Both the position numbers and the translations under genes were made by a program. This document shows positions 1-14,298 of a stretch of DNA of 32,000 bases, in pieces. The number at the start of each line of letters is the position of its first letter. The stretch's first letter is position 1. The stretch is from NCBI GenBank assembly GCA_964640155.1, contig CAZXEQ010000007.1, forward strand, positions 60,001 to 92,000, written 5' to 3'. The notes below the pieces were generated by a model that saw only the letters and a list, made by a program, of their open reading frames with translations, did no database searches and was not told the origin of the DNA. This DNA is from an uncultured bacterium (GTDB taxonomy: Bacteria; Auribacterota; JACPWU01).

Positions 1-2200
1 ACTTTGAAAAAAGGCCGATTAAATGAATTGCCAGAAGAGTTAAAAAATGAAGCAGCTTTGAATGAATGGAAAGATCGGCTTAAAAAAGTTCTTAAGGATG
101 AAGAGTTGGCTTCTCGTCTTACTTTCATTATTGAGCCTCTTCTCAAACAAATTCATCTTTCAGATCAGAGAAAAAATCTTAACCAGATTGCAGAACAATT
201 GGGAAATAAAGATAAGTCAACTAGGGCCAGAATAGAGGCTTTTGAAGCAAGTCTAAATCAGAGAATTACTGAAAAAGAAGCGGCTATCGAAGCTCTTAGA
301 GAATTAGAAAATAAAGGTATGGAAGCTAAGCGGCTTGCTTTTACTGCTCCTGGTGTGACCTATATTGGCATTGGAGATTTGGCTTTTGAAAAATTAGGCG
401 ATCGCGCTCGTAAACTCAGTGAGAGATTCTTCCCTCAAGGGGGCAAGAAGCTTCATAAAGCCAATGTGGATGAAGTGGATAGTGTTCTTGAGGATCAGGC
501 GTTGATGGATTATGTGATGGCGCAACCTTCAGGAGACTTAAGTGCTATAGAGAAAGAAATGTGGACTTTTGCTGGAAGTGTATCAGAAGAAATAAGACCT
601 TTTGGACTCGAGAGAAAAATAGGACTTCAAAAGGAAGAGATTCAAGCACAAGAGACAGAACAAGTTGTTGGGGCAAAGCTTACTCTTTTCACCAAGGATA
701 AAAATAACGATGTCTTAAGATTGACCAAGGCGGGCCGTCAAAGAGCCATGGACGCTTATAATGTGTTACGTCAAAAAATGATGGGACGCAAAGAACTTCC
801 TTCTATGCCGGAGTTTATCAAGATGGTTGAAAAATCATTGAAAGCTCGTGAGCTTCGAAAGAGAGGCGAAGATTATGAAATAGATGATGCCAGCGGTAGC
901 ATTCGATTGATTGAAAAAACAACAGGAGGTATCAATGATCGTCGTGATAGTGCCTTAGGTATTGCCTTGGATGTTTTGAATTCGGATCGTGTAAGGACAT
1001 TAGGTGATAATCGTACCAGTGCTAAGATCAGTGGTGGAGACGTGATTAAGGAACTTTTTGAAGGATTCAGCGGATACAGTGGATCTGTCGATACACGTGA
1101 AGCCAGAAAAGAATTTGAAAAAGGATTTGGAAAGAAGAGTACTCAATTTGTCAGAATTCCTAATTATTCTGCAAGTAAACGCAATATTCTTGCTCCGAAA
1201 ATTTTCAAAAACGATAATGCAGCACAAGCTTGGTTAGAAGAACAGGCGAGAGAAGTTATGCAGCATACGACTGCGATTATCACTTTACGAAGTGTTAAAC
1301 AAGTCGAAGATTTAGCCGCTAAAATGGAAGGGAAAAAAGAATTTAAAGGTAAAGTTCTTATTTTTAGAGGTTCAGAAAATGATGAACAAAGACGTCTGCT
1401 TTTAGCTCAAGCCAGTGAACCAGGTTATGTTTTAATACAAACTATGATCGGGGGTCGTGGAACAGACTGGGGCTTGGCTGATTTTGGATTAACAAAGGAG
1501 ATGTTGGATGAGGCTTTAAAAGGAAAGGGTCTTTCTGAAGGTTTAAGAAAAGCTCAGTTGGATCAATTAGAGGGTATAACCAAGAAATTAGCAGGAAACA
1601 CAGCTAAATTGACACCTGCTGAAGTCACTCAAGCTCGGAATATGAGTCAGACAGAGTTGCAGTCGCAGGATGATCGCTTGAACGAGCAGGTAAATTTTCT
1701 AGAAGAGTTTAATAAGACAGGCGAATCTCTTGATCAAGCCTTAGAGACGGCAAGAAAACAGAAAGGGCTGGCTGAAAAAGCTTTTAATGCTGCGTCTGCT
1801 AATGCTGCGCCTGCGGAAATTAAAGTGGAATTATCGTTAGGGCGTTGGCTTGCTTCTCGACGACTAGAGGTTTTAGAAGCACTTCAGAAATCAGGTCAGT
1901 CTGTGAATGAAGAATTAAAAAATGCAAGAGAAGCAAAAGAAAAGGCTAGCAGAAAACTTCTTGTTCGTGATTTAGAAAAGTTTTTTGAAAATCTTACAGA
2001 AGGAGCTGATGAGGCGCTTCGTAAGAAACTTGACCAAGTCTGTCAGAGAACCTTTATGAAATTTGCTTATGGTTTCTATATCATGCGCAATGTATTTCGA
2101 AGCCGTCGTGTGGATATACAAGTAGATGGCCGTGGTGCCCGACAAGCTGATCCAGGAACTTCCATTGAATTTAGTTCTTTAGAAGAAACAGGAGCTGACA
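1..2200 (+). other. SecA-type DEAD motor region of the giant protein (NBD1 C-terminal part and NBD2)
   Basis: Window versus E. coli SecA, recalled from memory. AFTAPGVTYIGIGDLAF...KLHKANVDEVDSVLEDQA (nt ~340-500) vs AYAADITYGTNNEFGFDYL...KLHYALVDEVDSILIDEA. FEGFSGYSGSVDTRE (nt ~1057-1101) vs YEKLAGMTGTADTE. VRIPNYSASKR vs VVPTNRPMIRKD. IQTMIGGRGTDWGL (1435-1476) vs ATNMAGRGTDI. FRSRRVDIQVDGRGARQADPGTSIEFSSLEE (2095-2187) vs [31 protein letters not shown]. Confidence 0.75.
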
Positions 2201-5200
2201 TTTTAGAAATTATCCAGCCCGGTTTAAGACAAGAGCAGCTGGACGGCCAGCTTCATCAGAAAGGAAAAGAGGGCCGTGATCGAATTGCAGCAAATGAAAA
2301 GAAATATGCCAAGTTCTTGAAGTTGAGAGAGGAATATCTAGATGCTTTAGATAAGTTGGAAACCATGGACGAGAAGGATAAGTCGGGTATTGCCACATTA
2401 CAAAAAGAGCTGAGCCGAATGGAACAAGAGATACAAACGATGAAAGCTGAGGCTCAGTTGAATTTGGATATCAATGATATGGATCAGCGTTTGGAAAAGG
2501 GTGATAAAAACAATGTGGGTTATCATATTTCTGAACGTCTTTCGGATGTTTTTGGAGGCATTCGTGAAGGTACATCGGATGTGACAAGTGTCACAGTGGC
2601 CAAAGCTTTGATTGAAAAAGTCATTGAAGAAGCGAAAAAATCTAAAAATCTTGCCCTTGTTCAAGAGGTTTTGAAAAATGCTTTTGACATTCGAAAGATC
2701 GAAGGCTTGTCTTTAGAGCAATTAGATCTTCTCAAAGAAGAACTCTTGAGTCAGTTGGCTCGTGGAGACATTCAATTAGATGGACAGGTTTTTGAAGAGG
2801 GCTTAAGTCAGGCAAATATGGATTTCATCGATAGACAGCAGGAAATTGAACGTGCGGAAGAAGACGTCGCCAAACTTAAAAAAGCCTTGGAAGATTATCT
2901 GGGAGAATTTACGAAGGGAGTTCAAAATAATATTGTCGATGGGCTTGTAAAGGTTTATGGACCTAAAGAAGTTGGGACAGGTGGATTAGATCTAGATGAG
3001 ATGAGTGCAGCATTTACTGATAAAATGACAGATTGGATTGGGAAGCAAACTCCTGGACCTATTGCGAGTCGTTGGATACGTTATTGGAAGACTGTCTCTA
3101 AATGGACGGCAGCAAAAAGTAAAGGCTTGAGAAGTCGGTCTGCTACTGTTGGGAACTGGATTGCTAAACATGCCCAAGTTGAAGAGCAAAGAAAATATTT
3201 TGAAAAAGCTGCTCGTGCTTGGAACAAAGCCATTGCTCGCCTTGAGAACAGAGGCGAATTGTCAGATGCATACGTTGCTATTGACCGAAAGGTAGAAACA
3301 GAGTCCATTCAGCCGATGGGATCAAATCCATCGGTACGTCAAGTGACTCAGCTTGTGAAGAAACGTGAAGCCGAGAAGCGTAAAGGTCAGGGCGTGACGA
3401 TAGACTTAGCAAAAGCCAAGGCTACGCGTCAGAAAGCAGGAACAACTGCTGGATCTCCTGAGGCTCAACAACCCAAACGACCTGAAGCTGAGACAAGATC
3501 GCTAACCACATTACAGAAATTGATTCAAACTGCAGCGGTCGATGGGAGAGTTAAAGGAACGACAAGGCTTGCTATCCCAAGTGCCGACGGAAATAAATCT
3601 CAGAGATATGACTTTGACCTTACGGCTACAACAGCTCAAGTTTTGAATAGTAATGAAGCAGCTCGCGAGGCCCTTTATAAGGCTCTTGCATCTGGTCAGC
3701 AAGGGGCAGTTAAGGTTGGAGACCGCACCCTTATTTTTGCTAAGAATGCAAGGGGCTTGGTTCAAATCGTAGATGTATCAGATCTGAAGGCGGATAGTGT
3801 TACTCAGGCTTTGACTGAGGCTCAGACAAGAAAAGATGATGTTAAATTTATCTTTGGAGCGTCTGGCCAAGTGAATATCGTTATTGCAAAACCTGGTCAG
3901 ACTTCTTTAGGTGAGAAAGTCACTTTAACGGGAAGCAATCTTTTTGTACATTCAAATATCAATGAAGGAACTGTTGGGTCAGGGAATACTTTTAGAGATT
4001 CGAATCTTTCAAATGCTCAAGTGGGCAATAATAACAGTTTCAATCGAGTAGAAGCGTCAGATGTCACGGTTGGAAATGAATCTCAATTAACCAGGGTAAA
4101 AGTAAATAGTGCTGAAGTTGGAAATGCTTCAAAATTAGAAGTGGTTTCAGCGGTAACAGTCGTTGTAGGTGAAAATTCTCAACTTAAAGATGTACGTGCG
4201 GATCGATCTGTTGTTGCGGGTGATCAAGCTCGGTTAGAAAATGTGACGGCAGAATCAATCGTCGCTGGAGATCGCTCTAGAATGAAGTCAGTGACAGGCC
4301 GCAACGTTGTTGCTCAAGAAGGTGCAGATGTTGAACTCATGAATGCTCAAGCCCTCAATGCTCCTTCCGGAGATTTGACTTTTGGGAAGAATGAAGTTAA
4401 GAGAGGTGGATATAAAGAAGGCGTTTATGAAACAACAGGAGTTTCTGACCGAACGGCTCTTATTGGGCAGATGGAGCATGTTAGAGCAACTGAAAAAGAA
4501 TTATTTGGTGAAACACCTTGGGAAACAATTAAAGGAAAACTCAAAGGTAAAGTAGACAGTCTTATTACCTTGCTTCGCAATCAAGAGCCAACGGGTAGAT
4601 TGAAATGGGGTAAAAAATTCTTAAAGTCAATTGGAACTTACTTCAAAACTTTTGATGAAAGACAAAGGGAACAATCAACTCGAGATCGTGAAAGTGAACA
4701 AAATTTAAGAGCGGATGCGGCAGCTGAAACCCTTTATCCCAATTTTTCAACACCTGCAAGTGAGGTTTATGAAGGTTTAAACAGAAATCTATTTGGCGAA
4801 GAGGAAATGACTCATGTTGGTTTTATCATGGGAACATTAAGTGAAGAAGCGATGGCAAAAGCTATTGAAAGTGGCGTTTTGGAAGAGGGAGAAGATTCGT
4901 CTCAAAGAGTTAGTCCGTCTCCTCGTGCGGTTGCAGAAGGTCTTATTGATTTTGCACAGAGAATTTTAGACTCGGCTAAGGATCAGAGCCCAGCTGATCA
5001 AGAAGTAGCTCAGAAAAAGGTAGAAGCGCTTTGGGAAGCTGCTTTAAAAGTAGATCCTCGTCATGCAAAGACTTTACTCAGAATGGCAGAAACATTGTGG
5101 ACTCGATCACAAGGGAAAAACTTGGAGGCTTCTGAGAGAGAAGAATTAAAGAAGAACTCTCTTGCGTTATATCGGTTGGCTTATCGCGAAGATCCTTCGG

Positions 5201-8200
5201 ATGCTGAAACAGTGGAATCTTATGCGAATGTTTTGATTTCTCAGAACAAATCTGCTGAAGCTATTAAAATGGCTGAACGTTTGGTGAAGGAAAATAAAAC
5301 AAGAGAAAATAAACTTCTCTTAGGAAGAATATTAATGGCTTCTGGTAAGTTTTCTGAGGCCATGAATGTTTTCAGAAAGAATGGAGTTGTCTCTAAGAAA
5401 GTGGAACAGCGTTTGACACAATTAGAAGGCAAGGCAGGCGAGTTAGCTAAAAAGAGAGCAGAATTAGCAAATTTAGATAAACCGAAAAAAGGTGGTTTCC
5501 CAGGTGGAATGTCTCCTGAAATGCTTCAGGGAATGGATCCGGAGATGCTCGGTCAGAATCCAGATCTACTTAGCCAATTGATGGGTGGAGGAGAGCAAAG
5601 GGAATCTACACCTGAAGAGAAAGCCCAGATTGCAGAGCAGAAGAAAAAGTTGGGAGAAGAAATAGAGGTTCTTAGTAAGGGAACAGAAGATTTTGGAATA
5701 ACATTAGAGGAGCTTACTTCTGCTGGTGAAAAGATATCCTCTCAAGGTTTGGCACAAATTTTAATGAAACTCTACGGAGGAAAAATATCTTTAGAAAAAG
5801 CTAAACTTTTAGCGAAGACACTTCGTGAGTTGATGAATACACATCAAGAACTTTCAAAGATGAATGTTGCCCTTCTTCTCGCTATCAATGCAGAAGATTC
5901 TGATTCAATTCCAAGTCTTAAAGCAAAGATGATGAGTCAATTAGCTACTCAAGAAAAAGACATACATACACAAAGGGTGTATGCCTTGGCGGCTGCTTTC
6001 TATAATGAACAGGCCCAAGCTATTTCCGAATTGACACGCCGTCATCCAGAATTAAAAGGTCAAGATCTTTCAAGATTCTTACCCAATATGGAAATTTCTC
6101 AAGTGACTCCTGAGGTAGAAACACCTGCTGTACCGGATCAGACTGAAGCTGCTAAACAAAGCGAGGCTTTGGTAAAAGAAATAGCGGCTCAACAGGAAAG
6201 AGTTGAAGCTCTTAAGAAAGAATCGAAAGAACCTCAAGGAAACCTCGTTGACATACTCACATTATCTGAAGAATCTCAATCCTATGACGAAGATATTAAA
6301 GCTCAGGAAGAAGTGATTAGGAATGCAAAGGCCGAGAGAGACGAAGCTCGTCGCGTACTGACACTTTATAAAATGACGAAAGCTATGGATGAAGTCCAAA
6401 CTCAAGAGCAGGTGATCAATGCATTAAACCAGAAGATTTCAGATGCTCAGAGAAAAATAGAGAATCTTAGGAAGATGTCCTTAAGTCAAAATCTTAGGAA
6501 TGAGATGAGGGCCCGGCAAGGTGATTTTGTGGCTTCCAAAACTCAAGCCGATACAGAAGAAGCAAAAGCTACTCGTGAGCGGTATCTCATTCACGTGACA
6601 AGAGAACTTCAGCAAGCAGAAGAAAAGTTAGGCTCTCTGAAATCTCAACAAAAATGGTCAAATCGTGCGACGCGTGCAACAGAGGCCGTCTTGAACTTTT
6701 CATCGGCTCTCAAAGGTAAAGCGAAGAAGGTGGTTGTGCGCTTACAGTCATTACGACAAAAGCCAAAATTGGTTCCACGTGTTACAGAACAATCACTGGA
6801 AGCTTTAAAGAAGTATTTAAATATGCAAGCGATTGCTCTAAATATCATGGAACAATTACCTGCTCCTTCAGAGCAAACAGCTAAAGATGCTTATGCCAAA
6901 ACTTCTGAAGATTTAAAAGCACAAGCTGTTGTTTGGGAAGAAGAAATGTCAGAAGTTTTGAAGGCACAGCCAGAATTGAAAGATCATTTTATAGAGTTGA
7001 TGGGTATTGATACAACGGACATTTCTTCCACTCCTGCTTACAAAGTGAAACTACTGAAACATTGGGCCGCTGCCATTAAGGAACTGGCTGAAACGATGGA
7101 TGCTAAGGACGAGAAGCGAGCAGCATATATGAAGTTGGTTGAGACCCTTGAGGCAAAAGCCAAAGTTGCGGAAGCTGAAGCGAAGAAGATCGAAGACGAA
7201 AAAGCCAAAGTCCAAGCCGCTGAAGCTGAGGCTAAGAAAGTTAAGCCTGTGAATGTAAATGAAGCTGGTGTGGAAGATCTGATGAAAGTTCAGGGAATAA
7301 CGAAGGTTTTGGCCCAGGCGATTGTTCAAGCTCGTCAACAATTGACTATCTCGGGAAAGCCGGGTCCATTCCGAAGTCTCTCAGATTTATTCTTGGTTCC
7401 CGGCTTGAGACGTTTATTTCCTATGAGCATAGATGAATTAGAAGATCGATATGCAACGATAAGTGCTCAGCTTAAAGTAGAGACAACAAAACCTGATTCT
7501 CCAGAAGTTTTAAAACAGAGACAATCTTTACAAGGCGAGCTTCAAAGACTTTCTTCTCTACATCAAAGCGTGAAGAAATTTGCTCAAAATATTACTTTTG
7601 GAGAAGAGGGTACTGTCTATTATCCTGAAACAGTAGAGCAAAGGGTGATGGAGGCCTTAGAATCAGAAATTCAACGGAGAAGTGTTCCACATTTGGAATT
7701 CCTTCGTAATGAGTTAGCTAGAATTAAGGCTGAAAAAGTACGATGTCTTAAAGAAACTTCAAATTCTGATGTTAAAGCGCGTAAGACTGCTTTGAATGAA
7801 TATGCTGAATTGGAAAAAGAAGAGAAGCGCTATATTGCATTGGAGAAGAAACTACAGAGTAAGACCCTTTCGGAAGTGATAGAAGTTGTAACTCAGCTCG
7901 AATTAAATCCTTTGATGAAAGCTTATAGTAAAATTTTAATGCAGTTGGCAAAATTAGGTGAGAGCAATCTTACAGTTCAAGAACATGCGAAACGCTATGA
8001 AGCTTTAAGAAGAGATATGGTTAAGCTTAATCGGCAGTTTTCAGATTTATCTGTACAAACTGATCAGGTAAAAAATGTAATGGAAAGTCTAAAGAATTAT
8101 ACAAGTCAGATGACCGATTATCTTCTTGTAGCTCGGCGCGTCAATCGTGTTTCATCTTTAGCTGAAAATCTTCGAAGGCAGTTCAATGAAAATGAAGGGA

Positions 8201-9180
8201 CTTATGGCGTTTCAAATTTCTTTGAAAATGCAGCAAGATTTGTGAGAGCTGAGTTGACGCGTGAATATGGGAATTCAGAAGATACAACGATTGACCACTT
8301 AGGAGACTTGTATCTTTTAGTTTTTGAGTATCATTCATTGAGTGATCAGCAAAAGGAAGCTTTGGGAAATATTGCGAGGAACATTGATAATCCTGATGTG
8401 AGAAGTGGAATGGTGCAAGTCCTAGAAATTATGAAAGGTACTATTTCACTACAGAATGGGCAATTGGGAAGCCTTAAAGCTTTATTAGGACAGTTTTTTA
8501 AACAGCTTCCTAAAGCTTTAGAAATTAAAATTCTAGAAAATGTGATTCAAAGATATGAAAATATTTTAGCCAAAAACACCAGTAATATAGAGGTGAAAAC
8601 AATATTAGGTCTCTTATATGCTTCCCAAATTCAATCAGGGGTTACTTTAAATTTGGAAACTTTACTAAAAGTGAAAGGTTATCTTGAAGAAAGTTTAGTT
8701 GCAGACGCTCAAAATGCGGAGAAGATCTCTGCATTGAAAGAAGTGAGACTTCAAATTCAAAAAGAACTTGTTAGACAAGCTAAAGCGATGGCAGACAAAC
8801 CTGAAAATGCTGCTAATGCAGATGAGTATACGGATAGAGTTTTGGATATTCAAAATTGGCTTCGGGCATATCATCAAAATTTAGATTCTGCTGAGCAAGA
8901 AGCTTTAGAGAAAGAATTAAGAAATCAATTGCCCAAAGAAGCTGTGGATAAAGCGCGTGAAACATTGTTTGTAGATGGTTTAATGAAGCTTGCCAAATCT
9001 GGGAAGCCATTGACTTTAAGAGCAGTGGGCCCCGTGTTAGCCCCGCTCTTTGGCCCTGTTGCGCGTATCATTCGTGATGGTTGGGTCGACATTGATCAAC
9101 CTGTTCATTCTCCTTCTACTCCTCTTCCAAAGAAAGTATCCAATCCTTCCTCTGGAATCGATCATAGCCGATCGACGTAA
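1..9180 (+). CDS. Giant SecA-like ATPase fusion protein, 5'-truncated by the window edge (>3059 aa). SecA-type motor followed by ~2350 aa of coiled coil, solenoid repeats, TPR-like repeats and a ComEA-like HhH module
   Basis: Single open frame of 9177+ nt with no stop until TAA at 9178-9180. SecA-like motifs appear in the canonical order (see finding). The Walker A region expected ~100 aa before DEVDS is not in the window, so the gene continues upstream and the TTG at nt 4 is probably not the start. Confidence 0.85.
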   Translation, partial: TLKKGRLNELPEELKNEAALNEWKDRLKKVLKDEELASRLTFIIEPLLKQIHLSDQRKNLNQIAEQLGNKDKSTRARIEAFEASLNQRITEKEAAIEALRELENKGMEAKRLAFTAPGVTYIGIGDLAFEKLGDRARKLSERFFPQGGKKLHKANVDEVDSVLEDQALMDYVMAQPSGDLSAIEKEMWTFAGSVSEEIRPFGLERKIGLQKEEIQAQETEQVVGAKLTLFTKDKNNDVLRLTKAGRQRAMDAYNVLRQKMMGRKELPSMPEFIKMVEKSLKARELRKRGEDYEIDDASGSIRLIEKTTGGINDRRDSALGIALDVLNSDRVRTLGDNRTSAKISGGDVIKELFEGFSGYSGSVDTREARKEFEKGFGKKSTQFVRIPNYSASKRNILAPKIFKNDNAAQAWLEEQAREVMQHTTAIITLRSVKQVEDLAAKMEGKKEFKGKVLIFRGSENDEQRRLLLAQASEPGYVLIQTMIGGRGTDWGLADFGLTKEMLDEALKGKGLSEGLRKAQLDQLEGITKKLAGNTAKLTPAEVTQARNMSQTELQSQDDRLNEQVNFLEEFNKTGESLDQALETARKQKGLAEKAFNAASANAAPAEIKVELSLGRWLASRRLEVLEALQKSGQSVNEELKNAREAKEKASRKLLVRDLEKFFENLTEGADEALRKKLDQVCQRTFMKFAYGFYIMRNVFRSRRVDIQVDGRGARQADPGTSIEFSSLEETGADILEIIQPGLRQEQLDGQLHQKGKEGRDRIAANEKKYAKFLKLREEYLDALDKLETMDEKDKSGIATLQKELSRMEQEIQTMKAEAQLNLDINDMDQRLEKGDKNNVGYHISERLSDVFGGIREGTSDVTSVTVAKALIEKVIEEAKKSKNLALVQEVLKNAFDIRKIEGLSLEQLDLLKEELLSQLARGDIQLDGQVFEEGLSQANMDFIDRQQEIERAEEDVAKLKKALEDYLGEFTKGVQNNIVDGLVKVYGPKEVGTGGLDLDEMSAAFTDKMTDWIGKQTPGPIASRWIRYWKTVSKWTAAKSKGLRSRSATVGNWIAKHAQVEEQRKYFEKAARAWNKAIARLENRGELSDAYVAIDRKVETESIQPMGSNPSVRQVTQLVKKREAEKRKGQGVTIDLAKAKATRQKAGTTAGSPEAQQPKRPEAETRSLTTLQKLIQTAAVDGRVKGTTRLAIPSADGNKSQRYDFDLTATTAQVLNSNEAAREALYKALASGQQGAVKVGDRTLIFAKNARGLVQIVDVSDLKADSVTQALTEAQTRKDDVKFIFGASGQVNIVIAKPGQTSLGEKVTLTGSNLFVHSNINEGTVGSGNTFRDSNLSNAQVGNNNSFNRVEASDVTVGNESQLTRVKVNSAEVGNASKLEVVSAVTVVVGENSQLKDVRADRSVVAGDQARLENVTAESIVAGDRSRMKSVTGRNVVAQEGADVELMNAQALNAPSGDLTFGKNEVKRGGYKEGVYETTGVSDRTALIGQMEHVRATEKELFGETPWETIKGKLKGKVDSLITLLRNQEPTGRLKWGKKFLKSIGTYFKTFDERQREQSTRDRESEQNLRADAAAETLYPNFSTPASEVYEGLNRNLFGEEEMTHVGFIMGTLSEEAMAKAIESGVLEEGEDSSQRVSPSPRAVAEGLIDFAQRILDSAKDQSPADQEVAQKKVEALWEAALKVDPRHAKTLLRMAETLWTRSQGKNLEASEREELKKNSLALYRLAYREDPSDAETVESYANVLISQNKSAEAIKMAERLVKENKTRENKLLLGRILMASGKFSEAMNVFRKNGVVSKKVEQRLTQLEGKAGELAKKRAELANLDKPKKGGFPGGMSPEMLQGMDPEMLGQNPDLLSQLMGGGEQRESTPEEKAQIAEQKKKLGEEIEVLSKGTEDFGITLEELTSAGEKISSQGLAQILMKLYGGKISLEKAKLLAKTLRELMNTHQELSKMNVALLLAINAEDSDSIPSLKAKMMSQLATQEKDIHTQRVYALAAAFYNEQAQAISELTRRHPELKGQDLSRFLPNMEISQVTPEVETPAVPDQTEAAKQSEALVKEIAAQQERVEALKKESKEPQGNLVDILTLSEESQSYDEDIKAQEEVIRNAKAERDEARRVLTLYKMTKAMDEVQTQEQVINALNQKISDAQRKIENLRKMSLSQNLRNEMRARQGDFVASKTQADTEEAKATRERYLIHVTRELQQAEEKLGSLKSQQKWSNRATRATEAVLNFSSALKGKAKKVVVRLQSLRQKPKLVPRVTEQSLEALKKYLNMQAIALNIMEQLPAPSEQTAKDAYAKTSEDLKAQAVVWEEEMSEVLKAQPELKDHFIELMGIDTTDISSTPAYKVKLLKHWAAAIKELAETMDAKDEKRAAYMKLVETLEAKAKVAEAEAKKIEDEKAKVQAAEAEAKKVKPVNVNEAGVEDLMKVQGITKVLAQAIVQARQQLTISGKPGPFRSLSDLFLVPGLRRLFPMSIDELEDRYATISAQLKVETTKPDSPEVLKQRQSLQGELQRLSSLHQSVKKFAQNITFGEEGTVYYPETVEQRVMEALESEIQRRSVPHLEFLRNELARIKAEKVRCLKETSNSDVKARKTALNEYAELEKEEKRYIALEKKLQSKTLSEVIEVVTQLELNPLMKAYSKILMQLAKLGESNLTVQEHAKRYEALRRDMVKLNRQFSDLSVQTDQVKNVMESLKNYTSQMTDYLLVARRVNRVSSLAENLRRQFNENEGTYGVSNFFENAARFVRAELTREYGNSEDTTIDHLGDLYLLVFEYHSLSDQQKEALGNIARNIDNPDVRSGMVQVLEIMKGTISLQNGQLGSLKALLGQFFKQLPKALEIKILENVIQRYENILAKNTSNIEVKTILGLLYASQIQSGVTLNLETLLKVKGYLEESLVADAQNAEKISALKEVRLQIQKELVRQAKAMADKPENAANADEYTDRVLDIQNWLRAYHQNLDSAEQEALEKELRNQLPKEAVDKARETLFVDGLMKLAKSGKPLTLRAVGPVLAPLFGPVARIIRDGWVDIDQPVHSPSTPLPKKVSNPSSGIDHSRST
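3925..4356 (+). repeat. Nine tandem 16-residue (48-nt) protein repeats, consensus V-G-x-x-S-x-L-x-x-V-x-x-x-x-x-V; predicted beta-solenoid
   Basis: Exact 16-aa register read from the translation: LTGSNLFVHSNINEGT / VGSGNTFRDSNLSNAQ / VGNNNSFNRVEASDVT / VGNESQLTRVKVNSAE / VGNASKLEVVSAVTVV / VGENSQLKDVRADRSV / VAGDQARLENVTAESI / VAGDRSRMKSVTGRNV / VAQEGADVELMNAQAL. The repeats are divergent at DNA level. Confidence 0.7.
5026..5385 (+). other. TPR-like helical repeat region inside the giant protein
   Basis: ~34-aa helical units with an A/L/Y pattern, e.g. ALYRLAYREDPSDAETVESYANVLISQNKSAEAIKMAERLV and LLLGRILMASGKFSEAMNVFRKN. Judged by eye only. Confidence 0.45.
7249..7404 (+). other. ComEA-like helix-hairpin-helix (HhH) DNA-binding module inside the giant protein
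   Basis: VNVNEAGVEDLMKVQGITKVLAQAIVQARQQLTISGKPGPFRSLSDLFLVPGL fits the ComEA C-terminal pattern (I/V)N(I/V)N.A..E.L..(L/V).GI....A..I...R...G.F.S..DL..V.G(I/L). Confidence 0.6.
8914..9180 (+). repeat. Direct repeat DR1: last 89 codons of the giant gene, in frame; left boundary of the TA insertion
   Basis: Aligns with 11662-11930 with 16 substitutions and one 2-nt indel (C4 run versus C6 run). Similarity starts abruptly at 8914/11662 and stops exactly at the stop codons. Confidence 0.95.
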
Positions 9181-9288
9181 AAAACAGTAATTCGTAGTTC
9201 GTGAAGCGTAGTTCGCAAAAATAAAATACCAATACCCTTTCCTCCGGTTAGCCAGTTGACCAGTTTTTTTTGATGTTTTTTTCTTTGG

Positions 9289-9327
9289 TTGACAAGCGTA
9301 TCTAAATGGGATATACATAGTATATCC
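9289..9327 (+). promoter_or_regulatory. Putative mazEF-like promoter with overlapping palindromic operator
   Basis: TTGACA (9289-9294), 17-nt spacer, TATACA (9312-9317). Perfect inverted repeat GGATATAC-ata-GTATATCC (9309-9327) overlaps the -10. RBS GAGGAGG at 9331-9337 precedes the ATG at 9348. Confidence 0.5.
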
Positions 9328-9347
9328 AGTGAGGAGGTGTCTGTCGT

Positions 9348-9596
9348 ATGGTTACCAGAGTTCAGAAATGGGGAAATAGCCAGGGTCTTCGTGTTAGCAA
9401 AGAGATACTGGAAAAGGTTCATATTGCTATTGGAGACATGGTAGATATTAGAGTTCAAAAGGATTGTATTCTTATTCAGCCCGTTCATCAGGTGCGTGGG
9501 AAATACAGTTTGCGAGATCTCGTACGTCAAATGCCTAAAGGTTATAAGCCGGGTCGGGAAGCATGGAGTGAACCTATTGGTAAGGAAGTTTGGTAA
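9348..9596 (+). CDS. mazE: MazE/AbrB-SpoVT family antitoxin
   Basis: 82 aa. N-terminus MVTRVQKWGNSQGLRVSKEIL has the MazE/AbrB swapped-hairpin signature (KWGNS..(L/V)R(I/V)). Strong RBS. Stop TAA abuts the toxin ATG. Confidence 0.85.
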   Translation: MVTRVQKWGNSQGLRVSKEILEKVHIAIGDMVDIRVQKDCILIQPVHQVRGKYSLRDLVRQMPKGYKPGREAWSEPIGKEVW

Positions 9597-9932
9597 ATGT
9601 TGAACTATGTACCTCATAAAGGGGATTTGGTCATACTGACATTTGATCCTCAAGCGGGTCATGAACAGAAAGGACGAAGACCCGCACTGATTGTAAGTAA
9701 TAATTTGTTTAATCAATCTACGGGTTTTGCCATTGCTTGTCCCATTACAAACACGGATCGTAAAATCCCATTTCATGTAAAAATCCATCCATCTTCTTCA
9801 CTCACAGGTTTCGTGATGGTAGACCAGGTTAAATCGATAGATTATCGAACCAGACAGGTCAAATATGTTGAACGAGCCCCTGTAGCATTGTTAGAGGAAG
9901 TATTAAGTATTTTAGATGCCAGTCTTTTTTAA
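9597..9932 (+). CDS. mazF: MazF/PemK family endoribonuclease toxin
   Basis: 111 aa. YVPHKGDLVILTFDPQAGHEQKGRRPALIVSNNLFNQSTGFAIACPITN... parallels E. coli MazF/ChpB (YVPDMGDLIWVDFDP..GSEQAGHRPAVVLS...). Typical antitoxin-then-toxin order. Confidence 0.9.
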   Translation: MLNYVPHKGDLVILTFDPQAGHEQKGRRPALIVSNNLFNQSTGFAIACPITNTDRKIPFHVKIHPSSSLTGFVMVDQVKSIDYRTRQVKYVERAPVALLEEVLSILDASLF

Positions 9933-9953
9933 AATGATTTCTTTTCTATGAAA

Positions 9954-9977
9954 GTGGGAAGTTCTAAGGTTTCCCGC
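9954..9977. terminator. Weak bidirectional hairpin between the convergent mazF and abiEii genes
   Basis: GTGGGAA (9954-9960) pairs with TTCCCGC (9971-9977), 7 bp including one G:U, with a 10-nt loop. No strong U-tract on either strand. Confidence 0.3.
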
Positions 9978-10014
9978 TTGAGCAATATTCATTTATTCTT
10001 CTTAGCGTTAGCCT

Positions 10015-10929
10015 TTAACCCCATGGACCAGAATTTTTCCATTCTTGATCAAAATTTTTATTTTGATCAATTGCCTTAATGGGCTTCAGAAGAAATTTTT
10101 CAATTGCCTCGGCAACATCTTTAAGCTTGTCCGGAACATTTTTGATTTTTCCCTTTGTCAGAAAAGCTTTCCAAAGCATTTGACGATCAGAGCTCTCGTC
10201 ATAAATTTGTTCAGCAAAAAGTGGAGATTTTGTAGGAATTACTGTCTTTCGATGGGTAAAAGTTTTTTTGAGAGCTTCTACAAGAGTCTGACCTTTGAAA
10301 TGAAATTGCTGAGCCATGAGCCAAAGATCATAAAAATCTTTCATTCTGCTATTAAGAAGTCCAAGCTTTATCATAGATTCAAATTTTTCAGCGACAACAC
10401 TTTCTTGCGGGTATCCTTTTAAATGTGGTTTTGGAAAATCTAAAATTACAGGATAATCAATCACTATAGATTTAGGATAAATCATATCTCCAAATCCAAA
10501 GTCTATTTGCATCGATATTCGTGAACGCTCAAGAAAACCTTTAAACTTAATTCTCACACCTTCGTAGTCTGCATCCTCTTTGATTTTTTGCCCTTTGATA
10601 GTGTTAGGATCATATACAAGACCATCTGATATGACATTAACTCTACAAATCTTTTTAACTACTTCTTCAATCTTGTTTACTTGATTGTCATAATGGGCAA
10701 GGAAATCAATGTCCAATGTTGCTCGTCTTTCAGGCACTTGCCATACTGTAAACATCAATGCCCCTTTTAGAATGAATTTATTGGCATATTCAGATTGACT
10801 GAGTCGATAGAGGAAGCGCTCCATCGCATAATATTGAAGGATCTCTGCAAAGGGTCGATTTAATTCTATTGCTTTATTCTGAATTCTATTTCGAACGGAT
10901 GCTTCAATATTTTTAATTTTTTGCGTCAC
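10015..10929 (-). CDS. AbiEii/AbiGii-family nucleotidyltransferase toxin (DUF1814, type IV TA)
   Basis: The family-typical motif RATLDIDF follows GALMF..W. The size fits the family. The ORF track start is 10974. I prefer GTG at 10929 because it gives VTQKIKNIEASVRNR..., a typical family N-terminus, and a 4-nt GTGA overlap with the abiEi stop. Confidence 0.8.
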   Translation of the reverse strand: MTQKIKNIEASVRNRIQNKAIELNRPFAEILQYYAMERFLYRLSQSEYANKFILKGALMFTVWQVPERRATLDIDFLAHYDNQVNKIEEVVKKICRVNVISDGLVYDPNTIKGQKIKEDADYEGVRIKFKGFLERSRISMQIDFGFGDMIYPKSIVIDYPVILDFPKPHLKGYPQESVVAEKFESMIKLGLLNSRMKDFYDLWLMAQQFHFKGQTLVEALKKTFTHRKTVIPTKSPLFAEQIYDESSDRQMLWKAFLTKGKIKNVPDKLKDVAEAIEKFLLKPIKAIDQNKNFDQEWKNSGPWG

Positions 10930-11528
10930 AATATTGTCTCCAAAAGTGGTTTGATAATATTTGCAACACGGCAAATATCAGCATAGAACATAATTTCCTT
11001 GGGAGATATACCTTTTTCAAGAACCGCTGTTTTAAGGGCGTCTCGTGCAATATTGATTCCTATTTTATTTCTAAACTTAAAGCAATCAGCCACAGTTTTA
11101 GCCACATTATAAACCTTCACCTTATAACCATCTATTTCTTGCTCTACAATTCCAGCGTTCCAAGTTTCTTTGGAAAAATGATAGTAATGAACAGGAGGAT
11201 AATTAATTTTATTGGCATGGTTCCCTTGTGGTATAGCAAGATCTATGAGCCTTGGTATCTCACTGGTTACTTCATGAAATGCCAGGGCAGAGAGTAGACA
11301 AATCACTCCTTTAGGAGATTTCATTGAAACCATAATAAGATCAGGATTGGATAGGGAAGTGCTCATCGTAAGTTTATACAGAGCACGATCTATTTTCTGA
11401 ATTTGTTTCAAATGCAGTAGGACTTTAAGATCAGATTTGTTAAAACCTGTATGGATAATGTCAGAGTATGTAGCTAGTCCTCTCCTCTTTTTGAAAAAGT
11501 TAATCAAACGCTCTCTTTTAGAGATCAT
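10926..11528 (-). CDS. AbiEi-family antitoxin / transcriptional regulator (type IV TA)
   Basis: 200 aa. The N-terminal winged-helix-like segment (...LATYSDIIHTGFNKSDLKVLLHLKQIQKIDRALYKL) resembles the AbiEi_4 domain. It lies immediately upstream of, and overlaps, the DUF1814 toxin gene. Confidence 0.8.
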   Translation of the reverse strand: MISKRERLINFFKKRRGLATYSDIIHTGFNKSDLKVLLHLKQIQKIDRALYKLTMSTSLSNPDLIMVSMKSPKGVICLLSALAFHEVTSEIPRLIDLAIPQGNHANKINYPPVHYYHFSKETWNAGIVEQEIDGYKVKVYNVAKTVADCFKFRNKIGINIARDALKTAVLEKGISPKEIMFYADICRVANIIKPLLETIL

Positions 11529-11536
11529 AGAGTTTT

Positions 11537-11590
11537 CCCTATTTATATATACTTGTTATTAAGTATATATAAATAGGGATGCTATGTCAA
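11537..11590 (-). promoter_or_regulatory. abiE promoter with a perfect 18-bp inverted-repeat operator
   Basis: On the minus strand: TTGACA (11590-11585), 17-nt spacer, TATACT (11567-11562). Perfect palindrome CCCTATTTATATATACTT (11537-11554), 6-nt spacer, AAGTATATATAAATAGGG (11561-11578). It covers the -10 and the start region, 9 nt upstream of the abiEi ATG. Confidence 0.6.
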
Positions 11591-11661
11591 ACCAATCAAA
11601 TTTGGTGTTAATAGTAGTAGCAGTAGTAGTAGGGTCAGGCCTTGCAATCACACATTAAGAG

Positions 11662-11930
11662 GAATTACGAAATCAATTGCCCAAAGAAGCTGTGGATAAA
11701 GCACGTGAGACATTGTTTGTGGATGGTTTAATGAAACTTGCTAAATCTAGGAAACCATTTACCTTAAGAGAAGTGGGCCCCCCGTGTTAGCCCCGCTCTT
11801 TGGCCCTGTTGCGCGTATCATTCGTGATGGTTGGGTCGACATTGATCAACCCGTTCATTCTCCTTCTACTCCTCTTCCAAAGAAAGTGGCCAGTCCTTCC
11901 TCTGGAATCGATCATAGCCGATCGACATAA
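11662..11930 (+). pseudogene. DR2: displaced, frameshifted copy of the giant gene's 3' end (last 89 codons)
   Basis: ~94% identical to 8914-9180. There is no upstream ORF, and an in-frame TAA lies at 11656-11658. A C6 run (versus C4 in DR1) shifts the frame and gives ...REVGPPC-stop. Confidence 0.85.
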
Positions 11931-11978
11931 TCGGCTTACCTTGCAGCTGGCTGTGACCTATTTCCCTCCTTAAATCTA

Positions 11979-11987
11979 TGGTATAAT
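11979..11987 (+). promoter_or_regulatory. Extended -10 promoter (TGgTATAAT) for the pseudopilin pair
   Basis: TG at 11979-11980 and TATAAT at 11982-11987. RBS AGGAGG at 11997-12002 precedes the ATG at 12012. No good -35. Confidence 0.45.
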
Positions 11988-12011
11988 AGTTGTGTTAGGA
12001 GGTTTTGCGTT

Positions 12012-12476
12012 ATGTGTGGGCGGCGTTTACCTCAAGCTGGATTTACTCTCGTCGAAATCCTTTCGATTTTACTGATTATTTCTGTCGTTATAGCCATTGT
12101 TATTCCTATTGCAAAAACATCTTTTGATAAGATGAGAATTCATCAAACCCAAGCAGATATTGCGGCTTTAGAATCAGCTTTGGAGGGATATAAATCAGCT
12201 AACGGGCAATATCCAGATGCCAGTCCGGCTAGTAGAGTACCAGTGAGTGCATTAAGCACTTATATGAAATTTCCTGCGAAAAGAGTCATTTCAAATATTT
12301 TTTATGATTCATGGAATGTCCCTTATCGTTATGCCAGGCCAGGGACGAATAATACTGCCTTTGTAGATTTGGCTTCAGCAGGACCTGATCGAGCTATTGA
12401 TGATTCGACTTGGCAGACAAGTACGTCGTCTGGGAATAATGCGGATAATATTGATAATTGGAGTCAAAAGAGATGA
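12012..12476 (+). CDS. GspG-like type II secretion / type IV pilin-like pseudopilin
   Basis: Prepilin leader and methylation motif QAG|FTLVEILSILLIISVVIAIVIP with Glu at +5. The C-terminal motif DSWNVPYRY...AGPD...ADNIDNW parallels GspG DPWGNPY.Y...G.DG...DI.NW. Confidence 0.85.
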   Translation: MCGRRLPQAGFTLVEILSILLIISVVIAIVIPIAKTSFDKMRIHQTQADIAALESALEGYKSANGQYPDASPASRVPVSALSTYMKFPAKRVISNIFYDSWNVPYRYARPGTNNTAFVDLASAGPDRAIDDSTWQTSTSSGNNADNIDNWSQKR

Positions 12477-13027
12477 AAATGGATAGGGGAGTTAAAAATG
12501 CCTATACACTTGTTGAAGTACTCATTGTGGCTTCTATTATTGGTGTTCTTGCGAGTTTCTTACTCAATGCAGCTATTAATAGTCGTAAGAAAGCCAATTT
12601 AACTAAAACACATGCCTTATTAGAATCTATCAGTGCGGCTCTCAGAATGTATCAAGATGATTTTGGTACTTATCCTCCTCAAAACGTGATTTATCGTTAT
12701 GGAACTCAGATTGCTGCTTCATCCGCAGATTGTCTTTATTATTATTTAGGCGCAACTTTTAAAAGAGGGGTGAATGCGTCTATTTTTGCAGGCCCTTATA
12801 TGAAATTTACGGGAGATGAACTTCAAACGACTCAAGTTTCTGCTTGTGATTTTGATGGGGATGGCGCTATTGACGATGATTTAAAAAGAATTTTAGATCC
12901 ATGGGGACAGGCCTTGCGATTTCGTAGTTCACCTACTCAAAATCTTTCAAGTTTCGATCTTTATTCCTTAGGGCCTGATAAGACGAATAATAGTGGATCA
13001 GGAGACGATATTAATAATTGGGAATAA
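12473..13027 (+). CDS. Second GspG-like pseudopilin
   Basis: MKMDRGVKNA|YTLVEVLIVASIIGVLASFLL (Ala instead of Gly at -1, Glu at +5). C-terminus DPWGQALRF...LGPDK...GDDINNW. The ATG at 12473 overlaps the upstream stop (ATGA), so I prefer it to the track's TTG at 12458. Confidence 0.8.
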   Translation: MKMDRGVKNAYTLVEVLIVASIIGVLASFLLNAAINSRKKANLTKTHALLESISAALRMYQDDFGTYPPQNVIYRYGTQIAASSADCLYYYLGATFKRGVNASIFAGPYMKFTGDELQTTQVSACDFDGDGAIDDDLKRILDPWGQALRFRSSPTQNLSSFDLYSLGPDKTNNSGSGDDINNWE

Positions 13028-13091: not shown

Positions 13092-13230
13092 TGCGCCATG
13101 CAGGGATCGGCGCCTTCGGGTCTTCGCTTCGCTACGCCCTCCGGTCGGCCACCCGTCCCGACTAGATGTCATCAATCATGCACAGCATGATCGATATTTA
13201 TATTCTGTCGGGGGACTCCATTCGATCCCT
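13092..13230 (-). other. tRNA-appended GC-rich module A (downstream of tRNA-Lys); ends with an 18-nt copy of the tRNA-Lys 3' end
   Basis: Read on the minus strand: AGGGATCGAA (13230-13221), complementary to the tRNA-Lys T-loop TTCGATCCCT. Then GGAGTCCCCCGAC, a 10-bp hairpin (13171-13195), GTCGGGA, the 17-mer CGGGTGGCCGACCGGAG (13155-13139), a small hairpin and GAAGGCGC. It ends with CGATCCCTGCATGGCGCA (13109-13092), identical to 13316-13299. Confidence 0.85.
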
Positions 13231-13298
13231 TCAGGAATACTTTCTAGTCTTTAAGGTAGAATATGCGCGTGATTTATAAGAAGAGAATTTTTGAAAAT

Positions 13299-13575: not shown

Positions 13576-13634
13576 AGGAATTGGAATAAGAATTTTTTGA
13601 AAAGAAAGCTCACAGACTTTTGGTTCTTTACGTT

Positions 13635-13762
13635 GGGACTTGAAGGGAGCCCCGACACTTTAATGATGCACATCTGCCAGCGGCCGATGTGCGACGTTTA
13701 GTTGGGGCGGGTGGCCGACCGGAGTCCCAAAGGGACGGAGGCGCCAAGTCCCTCCCGCGGCA
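13635..13762 (+). other. tRNA-appended GC-rich module B (downstream of tRNA-Leu); ends with an 18-nt copy of the tRNA-Leu 3' end
   Basis: GGGACTTGAA (13635-13644), complementary to the tRNA-Leu T-loop TTCAAGTCCC. Then GGGAGCCCCGAC, a hairpin (13668-13692), GTTGGGGC, the 17-mer CGGGTGGCCGACCGGAG (13708-13724), hairpin GTCCC-aaa-GGGAC and CGGAGGCGC. It ends with CAAGTCCCTCCCGCGGCA (13745-13762), identical to 13558-13575. Confidence 0.85.
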
Positions 13763-13972: not shown

Positions 13973-14027
13973 ACTGTTTAGTAAGAATATAGCGAAGGAA
14001 TGTTGCTAGTTTTAAGAGCGTCACAGA

Positions 14028-14196
14028 GGGATTTGAATAGGAGGCCCGACCAAAATATTAGTAAATCATGCAGTGCATGATTTGCGACTACTAGGAGGGC
14101 CGGGTGGCCGACCGGAGGGTGAGTCCTGAAAGGACGAATCCCGGAGGCGCCAAATCCCATCCGCCGCTCCAACTGTTTAGTGAGAATATAGCGAAG
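14028..14196 (+). other. tRNA-appended GC-rich module C (downstream of tRNA-Gly); ends with a 46-nt copy of the tRNA-Gly 3' end plus trailer
   Basis: GGGATTTGAA (14028-14037), complementary to the tRNA-Gly T-loop TTCAAATCCC. Then GGAGGCCCGAC, a hairpin (14063-14083), GGGCC, the 17-mer CGGGTGGCCGACCGGAG (14101-14117), hairpin GTCCT-gaa-AGGAC and CGGAGGCGC. It ends with CAAATCCCATCCGCCGCTCCAACTGTTTAGTGAGAATATAGCGAAG (14151-14196), which matches 13952-13997 with one mismatch. Confidence 0.85.
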
Positions 14197-14298
14197 TTCC
14201 CTTCTAAGCTAAGAGGGGTGAGGGGAGTTATAAAAAAGTAACCCCTCAAACTCCCCTTTGAAATAAAAGGGAGAATATAAAATAAATAGGAGTTCTTT

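Follow-up and report, generated by a model that had tools for sequence, protein, structure and literature searches.

Mobile elements are well known to integrate at the 3' ends of housekeeping protein genes, in Streptococcus and elsewhere, and cis-mobilizable elements (CIMEs) that lack an integrase are likewise well described (PMC5704250). In Escherichia coli, e14 and phage 21 insert in icd, where they provide a replacement gene end and leave the displaced pseudo-end icdC behind (PMC13626634). Here we analysed an insertion at the 3' end of a giant gene from the uncultivated phylum Candidatus Auribacterota. The stretch of DNA examined, referred to as the window, comprises 32,000 nt of contig CAZXEQ010000007.1 (assembly GCA_964640155.1, positions 60,001-92,000, forward strand). 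It contains a small island of two toxin-antitoxin (TA) modules, mazEF and abiEi/abiEii, bracketed by two copies of the gene end, which we call DR1 (8914..9180, plus strand) and DR2 (11662..11930, plus strand). The inserted tract (8914-11661; 2,748 bp, ~2.75 kb) holds, in this order, a foreign allele of the last 89 codons, foreign spacer DNA, mazEF, abiEi/abiEii, and a right arm.

The locus resembles e14/icd in that an insert in the 3' end of a protein gene brings a slightly diverged replacement end, the gene stays whole, and a pseudogene fragment remains downstream; loss of the insert also recreates a chimeric gene in both cases (PMC13626634). Repeats of the gene 3' end and an empty site were found here, whereas an integrase and a constant gene-end copy were not. 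e14 has its own integrase and is excised site-specifically, whereas the island has no recombinase, carries only two TA modules as cargo, and has a replacement end that adjoins the chromosomal spacer of a relative. CIMEs, for their part, arise when integrative and conjugative elements (ICEs) or integrative and mobilizable elements (IMEs) decay, and usually occur in tandem with a cognate element or in species that carry one. Repeats are present at the island and it has no recombinase, but it shows no visible remnants of ICE or IME genes and no partner element, and the same island in a related contig (L109, described below) lacks repeats. The original prediction had regarded the arrangement as unusual, which was not upheld, since e14/icd/icdC (PMC13626634), integration at gene 3' ends, and integrase-less CIMEs (PMC5704250) had already been described. 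The architecture is of a known general kind, e14/icd-like. Modest novelty comes from the phylum of the host, the giant gene as target, the mending of a frameshifted resident allele by the imported end, and the recurrence of the footprint with a related mazEF in another phylum.

Other systems were compared in the same way. The pdif (XerC/D) modules of Acinetobacter plasmids are small and recombinase-less, often carry TA genes, and are moved by host enzymes at inverted 28-bp dif-like sites. The island is likewise small and recombinase-less with TA cargo, but no match to a dif-like core (CATAA-N6-TTATG, one mismatch allowed) was found in the whole window. Orphan C-terminal cassettes of rhs and cdiA genes share a pre-toxin region followed by wholly different toxin tips, each of which is then followed by an immunity gene. 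Here, too, the displaced 3' end of a large gene lies downstream, but the two ends are 93% identical throughout and unrelated TA genes lie between them; a polymorphic-toxin orphan cassette was rejected on account of this identity along the whole length. Finally, de Vries and Wackernagel in 2002 and Prudhomme and colleagues in 2002 reportedly described Campbell-type insertion-duplication through homologous recombination, or homology-facilitated illegitimate recombination, of foreign DNA. The island shares with such events one seamless and one non-homologous junction, a homologous anchor, and the lack of a dedicated recombinase. It differs in its 267-bp duplication and in an exchange at the edge of the anchor, whereas natural cases usually combine insertion with deletion.

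Repeats, empty sites and polarity

The direct repeats, predicted at about 94% identity, were readily recovered. Using blastn, 8914-9180 and 11662-11930 were joined in a single 269-column alignment with 93.3% identity, 16 mismatches, and one 2-nt gap (E=3e-116), in which the longest identical stretch is central (78-114 nt, blastn blocks). A repeat search of the window gave 91% identity for 8914-9033/11662-11781 and 97% for 9030-9180/11780-11930. DR1, the gene end now in use, is in frame with the open reading frame (ORF) at 4..9180 and ends at its stop codon. The repeat had been described as starting abruptly and ending exactly at the stop codon. High similarity does stop there, but the left boundary is not perfectly sharp, as a few bases upstream of 8914 also match weakly, and past 65 nt of unrelated sequence homology resumes, at 9241-9266. 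DR2 is the displaced resident end. It carries two private single-nucleotide polymorphisms (SNPs; 11668 and 11852) and six C in the run at 11778-11783, compared with four in DR1; this additional CC breaks the frame and leads to a TAG at 11788-11790. A TAA at 11656-11658 is located two codons upstream of the DR2 start.

Homology searches with the giant-gene end were unproductive: no detectable homologue of its last 499 aa was found among 5.8 billion proteins, and its last 299 aa had no relatives in GTDB genomes or JGI metagenomes. Because of this, empty sites were sought by exact look-up of the neighbouring pseudopilin. The exact protein led to a Logan contig of 1,305 bp (SRR19881398; L005), and the 90% cluster of the pseudopilin led to a second one (SRR26835457; L010). 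In L005, the giant gene runs straight into the pseudopilin promoter and gene, which is the empty site that the original prediction had proposed to look for in relatives. L010 is a second island-free site, ~84% identical, with the full reading frame and no CC insertion. The locus is an insertion polymorphism.

The L005 sequence also revealed which of the two gene ends is resident. No differences from the window were observed over 8759-8954, after which L005 continued as DR2-type sequence, agreeing with DR2 and not with DR1 at 14 of the 16 SNPs and at the CC indel. Compared with window positions 11662-12811, only 2 of 1,150 nt differed. The window and L005 thus differed at 0/196 positions before 8955 and at 15/226 after it (14 SNPs and the indel, in 8955-9180; Fisher p=8e-5). 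Since L005 follows DR2 after 8954, DR2 is the resident end, and DR1 is foreign from 8955 on. When L010 was used as the outgroup, 8 SNP positions and the indel were found to be ancestral in DR1; as this outgroup lacks the CC, the frameshift is derived. The +2 frameshift of the resident allele removes the last 47 codons; with the imported allele the gene regains its full frame, the ancestral condition, as L010 shows.

Read in the long frame, the SNPs between DR1 and DR2 comprised 11 synonymous and 5 non-synonymous changes (n=16), including those downstream of the frameshift. On the DR2-type branch, synonymous and non-synonymous changes were 7:3, compared with a synonymous fraction of ~0.28 expected under neutrality (p=0.007). 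Such mostly synonymous differences indicate that, before they were joined, the two ends belonged to separate lineages and evolved there as working genes. DR1 looks like a piece of flanking chromosome that arrived together with the island from a relative that is ~6% diverged.

The positions of the junctions constrain the event further. The left junction is seamless and lies within a 34-nt block (8921..8954) that is the same in DR1, DR2, and the empty site and thus holds the exchange point. Its left limit is 8920, where DR1 and L005 have A and DR2 has C, and its right limit is 8955, where DR1 has G and both DR2 and L005 have A. The right junction, between 11661 and 11662, is non-homologous. On recipient coordinates, the two junctions are within 41 nt of each other, and this proximity points to a single event at one point rather than two independent ones. 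Two Logan contigs from SRR8893623 matched the window at 100% identity, namely L006 (9444-11698) and L004 (11897-13518). This independent assembly contains the island-to-DR2 junction, including the private C at 11668 (L006), which the source assembly also gives; the DR1-to-island junction is taken from the source assembly. The exact MazF, AbiEi, and AbiEii proteins were recorded only from SRR8893623 and the NCBI source contig and not from the sample of L005. Exact look-up of MazE gave no record, as its gene is cut in the Logan contig.

The giant gene itself enters the window as a 3' part (4..9180, plus strand). According to the ORF list and Pfam, it encodes SecA-like pieces of the DEAD, preprotein-binding, and P-loop types together with a helix-hairpin-helix motif and tetratricopeptide repeats (TPRs); its orthologue in L109 (L109 1-5651) encodes 15,602 aa. 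Over the last 290 giant-gene codons, amino-acid identity between the window and L109 was 44%. In the translations, clear conservation was confined to about the last 60 aa (GKPL.LR.VGPVLAPLFGPV.R.IRDGWVDID...HSRST), and the repeat spans exactly this conserved tail plus ~30 codons. The CC frameshift of the resident allele cuts off the conserved last 47 codons. The allele reads GGGCCCCCCG at 11778-11790 (L005 272-284), where L010 has GGGGCCCG, and has C CCC CCG in frame, with the stop two codons on. A -1 slip at this site would give the long frame back, with one additional proline; the allele might thus be dead, phase-variable, or read by programmed frameshifting.

Island contents and counterparts in other genomes

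As predicted, Pfam and PADLOC identified MazE, MazF, AbiEi, and AbiEii, and no integrase or transposase, between the repeats. The mazE antitoxin gene (9348..9596, plus strand; PF04014, E=8e-7) is followed by the mazF/pemK toxin gene (9597..9932, plus strand; PF02452, E=2.5e-27), and the mazE stop codon (9594-9596) abuts the mazF start (9597), which is the gene order of type II MazEF systems. On the minus strand, the gene for the AbiEii nucleotidyltransferase toxin (10015..10929; PF08843, E=2.7e-39; PADLOC AbiEii, E=2.7e-102) overlaps by 4 nt (10926-10929) with that for the AbiEi antitoxin/regulator (10926..11528; PADLOC AbiEi, E=1.6e-61; no Pfam match), as in the gene arrangement of AbiE, a type IV TA and abortive-infection system. 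The cargo is ordinary MazEF and AbiE. No integrase or transposase domains were detected in the scanned ORFs of the window, and no decayed integrase or transfer genes were found in the island.

The promoters and operators attributed to each module were also recognized, each operon having a promoter-like site over a perfect palindrome. The predicted mazEF promoter (9289..9327, plus strand; TTGACA, 17 nt, TATACA) lies over the palindrome GGATATAC-ATA-GTATATCC, which overlaps the -10 element (9309-9327). The predicted abiE promoter (11537..11590, minus strand; TTGACA, 17 nt, TATACT) matches 11 of 12 consensus positions and overlaps an inverted repeat with 18-bp perfect arms (11537-11578). We considered TTGGTTGACA and TGTCAAACCAA as terminal inverted repeats of the island, but these correspond to the -35 regions of the two outward-facing promoters, and L109 does not conserve them.

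The remaining DNA of the tract is of mixed character. The 60 nt following the DR1 stop codon (9181..9240) have no counterpart in native spacers. They contain CGTAGTTCG twice (9193 and 9207, 5 nt apart, spanning 9193-9215); this 9-mer pair was not above chance across the window and is missing from the other arm, and its interpretation as integrase arm sites was rejected. The adjacent segment (9241..9266; CCTCCGGTTAGCCAGTTGACCAGTTT) is of the type of the L010 intergenic DNA downstream of the giant gene, matching the native L010 spacer at 24/26 positions with one 2-nt gap, a score reached in 0/2000 shuffles. This homology to the native spacer of a relative indicates that the duplicated unit was originally longer than 267 bp. 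At the opposite end, the right arm (11591..11661) is colinear with L109 to ~11614, where L109 has its own pseudopilin promoter, and ends with ...ACATTAAGAG immediately before GAATTAC at the junction. From this sequence similarity, the right arm may be a decayed copy of the donor's pseudopilin promoter and 5' untranslated region.

In L109, a 51-kb Logan contig (SRR22387960) of a distant relative, the spacer that separates the giant gene from the pseudopilins likewise holds this island (L109 5703-7402 compared with window 9303-11614). Nucleotide identity to the window was 91% for mazEF and 81% for abiEi. The equivalent of 10192-10807, most of abiEii, is missing from L109, and abiEi is kept. We found no duplicated gene end in L109 and no direct repeat beyond a chance-level 25 nt. 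Its giant-gene end is only ~70% identical to DR1, and the counterpart of the 8921-8954 core is not conserved. As the L109 island lacks a repeat and adjoins a gene end unlike DR1, the gene-end copy is not a fixed part of the island. Synonymous divergence (dS) between the window and L109 was 0.14 for mazE, 0.43 for mazF, and 0.73 for abiEi, and was >2 or saturated for the flanking pseudopilins and the giant-gene end. The rise of dS across the island suggests a mosaic history. Separately, L109 carries an AAA_14/DUF4143 ATPase gene between the pseudopilins and tRNA-Lys, which the window does not.

A comparable footprint was found in a metagenome-assembled genome (MAG) of another phylum. In L008, a Chlamydiota MAG contig (JACPWU010000007.1), positions 8824-10445 contain brnTA and mazEF bracketed by 96-nt repeats with 88% identity. 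Each repeat comprises the final 85 nt of a 75-aa gene located upstream and 11 nt beyond it, and the two have an identical 27-nt block at their left edge; the downstream copy begins 13 nt past the mazF stop codon and contains an in-frame TAG. They are unrelated in sequence to the repeats of the window, and the L008 region as a whole is an array of TA modules. The mazEF of the window (9289-9931) showed 84% nucleotide identity to L008 9694-10335 and to L009 57-698, and MazF showed 92% amino-acid identity between Auribacterota and Chlamydiota (dS 0.54). Since the similarity runs from the -35 element to the toxin stop codon, the mobile unit is the bare operon. No flanking repeats were found at three other abiE modules (L110, L111, and L112), which indicates that the gene-end footprint is not general to abiE cassettes.

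Possible routes of insertion

Our preferred explanation, held tentatively and at somewhat less than even probability, is that the insert represents a homology-driven capture of a chromosomal segment from a neighbouring strain by host recombination, without a dedicated recombinase. The donor would have been a contiguous chromosome of a related strain in which the TA island already lay in the spacer between the giant gene and the pseudopilins, as it does in L109. Entry would have been through host homologous recombination rather than an island-encoded or dedicated enzyme. One possible route is a Campbell-type single crossover of a circularised fragment corresponding to the tract 8914-11661. Alternatively, a break at about 8914-8920 might have been repaired by copying the incoming homologue, with the over-long copy then joined to the other broken end. 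Either route would place both junctions at one spot and leave the resident end as a downstream pseudo-copy. As host functions would suffice for both, they fit the missing recombinase in the window and the chromosomal nature of the arm. Once inserted, the modules, with a toxin of the MazF endoribonuclease family and the AbiEii nucleotidyltransferase, would penalise loss of the island, and the repair of the giant-gene C-terminus may have favoured the recombinant.

The original prediction had invoked Campbell-type integration of a circular element. The empty site, the foreign upstream and resident downstream copies, and a left-edge exchange resembling a single crossover agree with that idea, but the dedicated element does not. 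In particular, the island does not resemble an element using the last 89 codons as its attachment site, given the chromosomal spacer in the DR1-side arm and the L109 island without a duplication.

Several observations nevertheless weigh against host-driven capture. A RecA-type exchange should prefer the central 78-114-nt block over the 34-nt block at the edge; if blocks are weighted roughly by length minus 25, the left one would be chosen in only ~10% of events. With a site-specific enzyme, this edge position needs no further explanation. The similarity between the right arm and the promoter is not significant on its own (p about 0.13-0.19 by shuffling). The island has a low dS compared with its flanks and yet lies in the same spacer of genomes that are too far apart to recombine by homology, a hint of site specificity or of hypervariable flanks, and the L008 footprint around the shared mazEF suggests a recurrent mechanism.

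These points bring in the rival that we consider rather improbable, though less so than the others, namely a CIME-like or satellite element whose attachment site includes the last 89 codons and which was moved in trans by a tyrosine or serine integrase from an ICE, a prophage, or a related island, with the crossover in the 8921-8954 core and a replacement end brought along in the manner of e14 and phage 21 at icd. An exchange at the extreme left of the identity block is what integrases that target tRNA genes and gene ends produce, and the C at 11668, found neither in DR1 nor at the empty site, matches the expectation for a short left arm that stems from the element. The island dS, well under that of the flanks in the window and L109, indicates horizontal arrival at the same locus, and the L008 mazEF island is bracketed by a gene 3' end with its 27-nt identical left-edge block. 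Precedents also exist, as CIMEs and integration at protein-gene 3' ends are established (PMC5704250), as is e14/icd/icdC (PMC13626634). On the other hand, neither the island nor the window has an integrase, and the island lacks decayed integrase or transfer genes; the arm adjacent to DR1 consists of chromosomal spacer; in L109, no repeat flanks the island, the gene end is unlike DR1, and the core is not conserved; and the repeats of L008 and the window are unrelated in sequence.

A reversed polarity, in which the duplicated state is older and L005 is a deletion derivative formed by DR1 x DR2 recombination in the 34-nt block, appears distinctly unlikely. It accords with L005 being a chimera, with the A of DR1 at 8920, DR2-type sequence from 8955, and the CC frameshift of DR2; fusion of the giant gene to a decayed pseudo-end would also explain the frameshift in L005, and a pseudo-copy tolerates a frameshift more easily than a working gene does. 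Such a deletion would, however, lose two TA modules at once, against which addiction should select, and would once more place the exchange in the short block on the left instead of the long one in the centre. The 11:5 pattern of synonymous to non-synonymous changes would still call for earlier recombination between lineages, and L010 is an island-free single-copy site. We regard it as very improbable that the arrangement is an assembly artefact in which an empty-site chromosome and some other molecule, whether a 2.75-kb circle, a tandem array, or DNA of another strain, were threaded through the 34-nt block. With k <35, the integrated state and a circle plus an empty site have the same k-mers, and the k=31 Logan contigs of SRR8893623 are interrupted exactly in this block (L006 stops at 11698, and L004 begins at 11897). 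The junction of the island with the gene fragment is nevertheless real in the reads (L006), the distinguishing bases are 42 nt apart and thus resolvable by 100-150-nt reads and large-k assembly, and the name k141 of a related contig (L001) suggests a MEGAHIT-type assembly with k up to 141. Furthermore, DR2 differs from the L005 allele at two positions. Least probable of all, and largely refuted, is an old, non-mobile tandem duplication in one lineage whose copies diverged in place, a history that had been raised from the outset as a challenge to mobility. The duplicated unit may indeed take in spacer besides the gene end, but the flank-identical strain (L005) has a single copy, and the divergence is mostly synonymous even past the frameshift, unlike that of a pseudo-copy decaying in place. 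DR1 and the adjacent spacer are also nearer to the outgroup L010 at many sites, while their surroundings are identical to L005.

Extending homology-driven capture beyond this locus, we consider it doubtful, though conceivable, that small TA islands can spread between strains recombinase-free by carrying a neighbouring gene end as homology for host recombination, with that end taking the place of the recipient's own (and here repairing a frameshifted giant gene) and the displaced resident end as their footprint. If this is true, the L008 footprint would make gene-end-borne TA spread recurrent across phyla rather than a one-off.

Neighbourhood of the island and significance of the locus

Downstream of DR2, the native spacer and pseudopilin promoter (11931..12011, plus strand) contain the extended -10 element TGGTATAAT at 11979-11987, which is the same in L005. 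Two genes for GspG-like pseudopilins follow (12012..13027, plus strand; 12012-12476 and 12458/12473-13027; PF08334 and PF07963). The remaining genes of the window include pseudopilins, three tRNAs, tig, clpP, clpX, serA, purA, uppS, cdsA, dxr, and rseP, together with the further housekeeping genes proS, nusA, infB, rbfA, and truB. The host belongs to Candidatus Auribacterota; the best genome match was JAYRIK010000013.1, with a trigger factor 95% identical.

Apart from the TA island, the window contains three ORF-less insertions of 190-210 nt, each directly 3' of one of the downstream tRNA genes for Lys (13092-13298, minus strand), Leu (13577-13762), and Gly (13973-14199). Each of these mini-elements terminates in CGGGTGGCCGACCGNAG-hairpin-RAGGCGCC, after which the 3' part of that tRNA is repeated, from T-loop position 57 to the discriminator base (typically 17 nt, up to 46). 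All three also contain a match antisense to the T-loop of their own tRNA. The related MAG contig L001 has a precise empty site at tRNA-Lys, with a single 18-nt repeat, and a copy of the tRNA-Gly mini-element with a different (swapped) left half. The family is widespread, its motif matching 98 JGI metagenome stretches (L011-L108). In most copies with enough upstream sequence, a tRNA gene on the same strand ends 57-200 nt upstream, and 20 isoacceptor types were represented. The units typically measure 112-207 nt, although a single one has 244 nt, and tandem pairs also occur.

Among 54 unique copies, 48 had an interior segment of 9-15 nt that is exactly reverse-complementary to the target's T-loop plus the 3' strand of its T-stem. 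This antisense segment co-varies with the tRNA and has GAA at its end (or no more than 1-2 nt away); a conserved GGGAGC and then a long hairpin come next. Such target-matched antisense sequence suggests a nucleic-acid-guided or folded-strand insertion. The mini-elements had no Rfam match at E<=1, the motif was absent from viral contigs, and no description of them was found in literature searches. No recombinase was recurrently linked to them at the 98 metagenome loci, where shared neighbours were housekeeping-like (ClpP-, NusG-, and ribosomal-protein-like by eye). The TA island shares no features of the tRNA mini-elements. A similar antisense guide was sought there, and the only candidate, a 9-mer at 9935-9943 matching 8919-8927, was rejected as about what chance would give in 2.5 kb by our estimate. 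In L008, a GC-rich stretch of ~180 nt between brnTA and mazEF (9480-9660) has the terminal inverted repeats AAAAGTGTGTCCTTTTAAAAGG and ATAAAAGGACACACTTTTAAAT. Its minus strand contains GCGGGTGGCCCGAC, which recalls the tRNA mini-element motif, and CTTGAA/TTCAAG segments are present as well. This stretch may be a related miniature element.

The locus provides a clean natural case of an addiction/defence cassette moving between strains of the uncultivated phylum Candidatus Auribacterota, for which donor-type sequence, recipient-type sequence, and the empty site were all recovered. It illustrates that a gene-end repeat need not mark an integrative element but can be the scar of a homology-driven capture. 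The event also changed a protein of ~15,000 aa, to which the conserved C-terminal 47 residues were returned, and selection may have acted on this repair as much as on the cargo.

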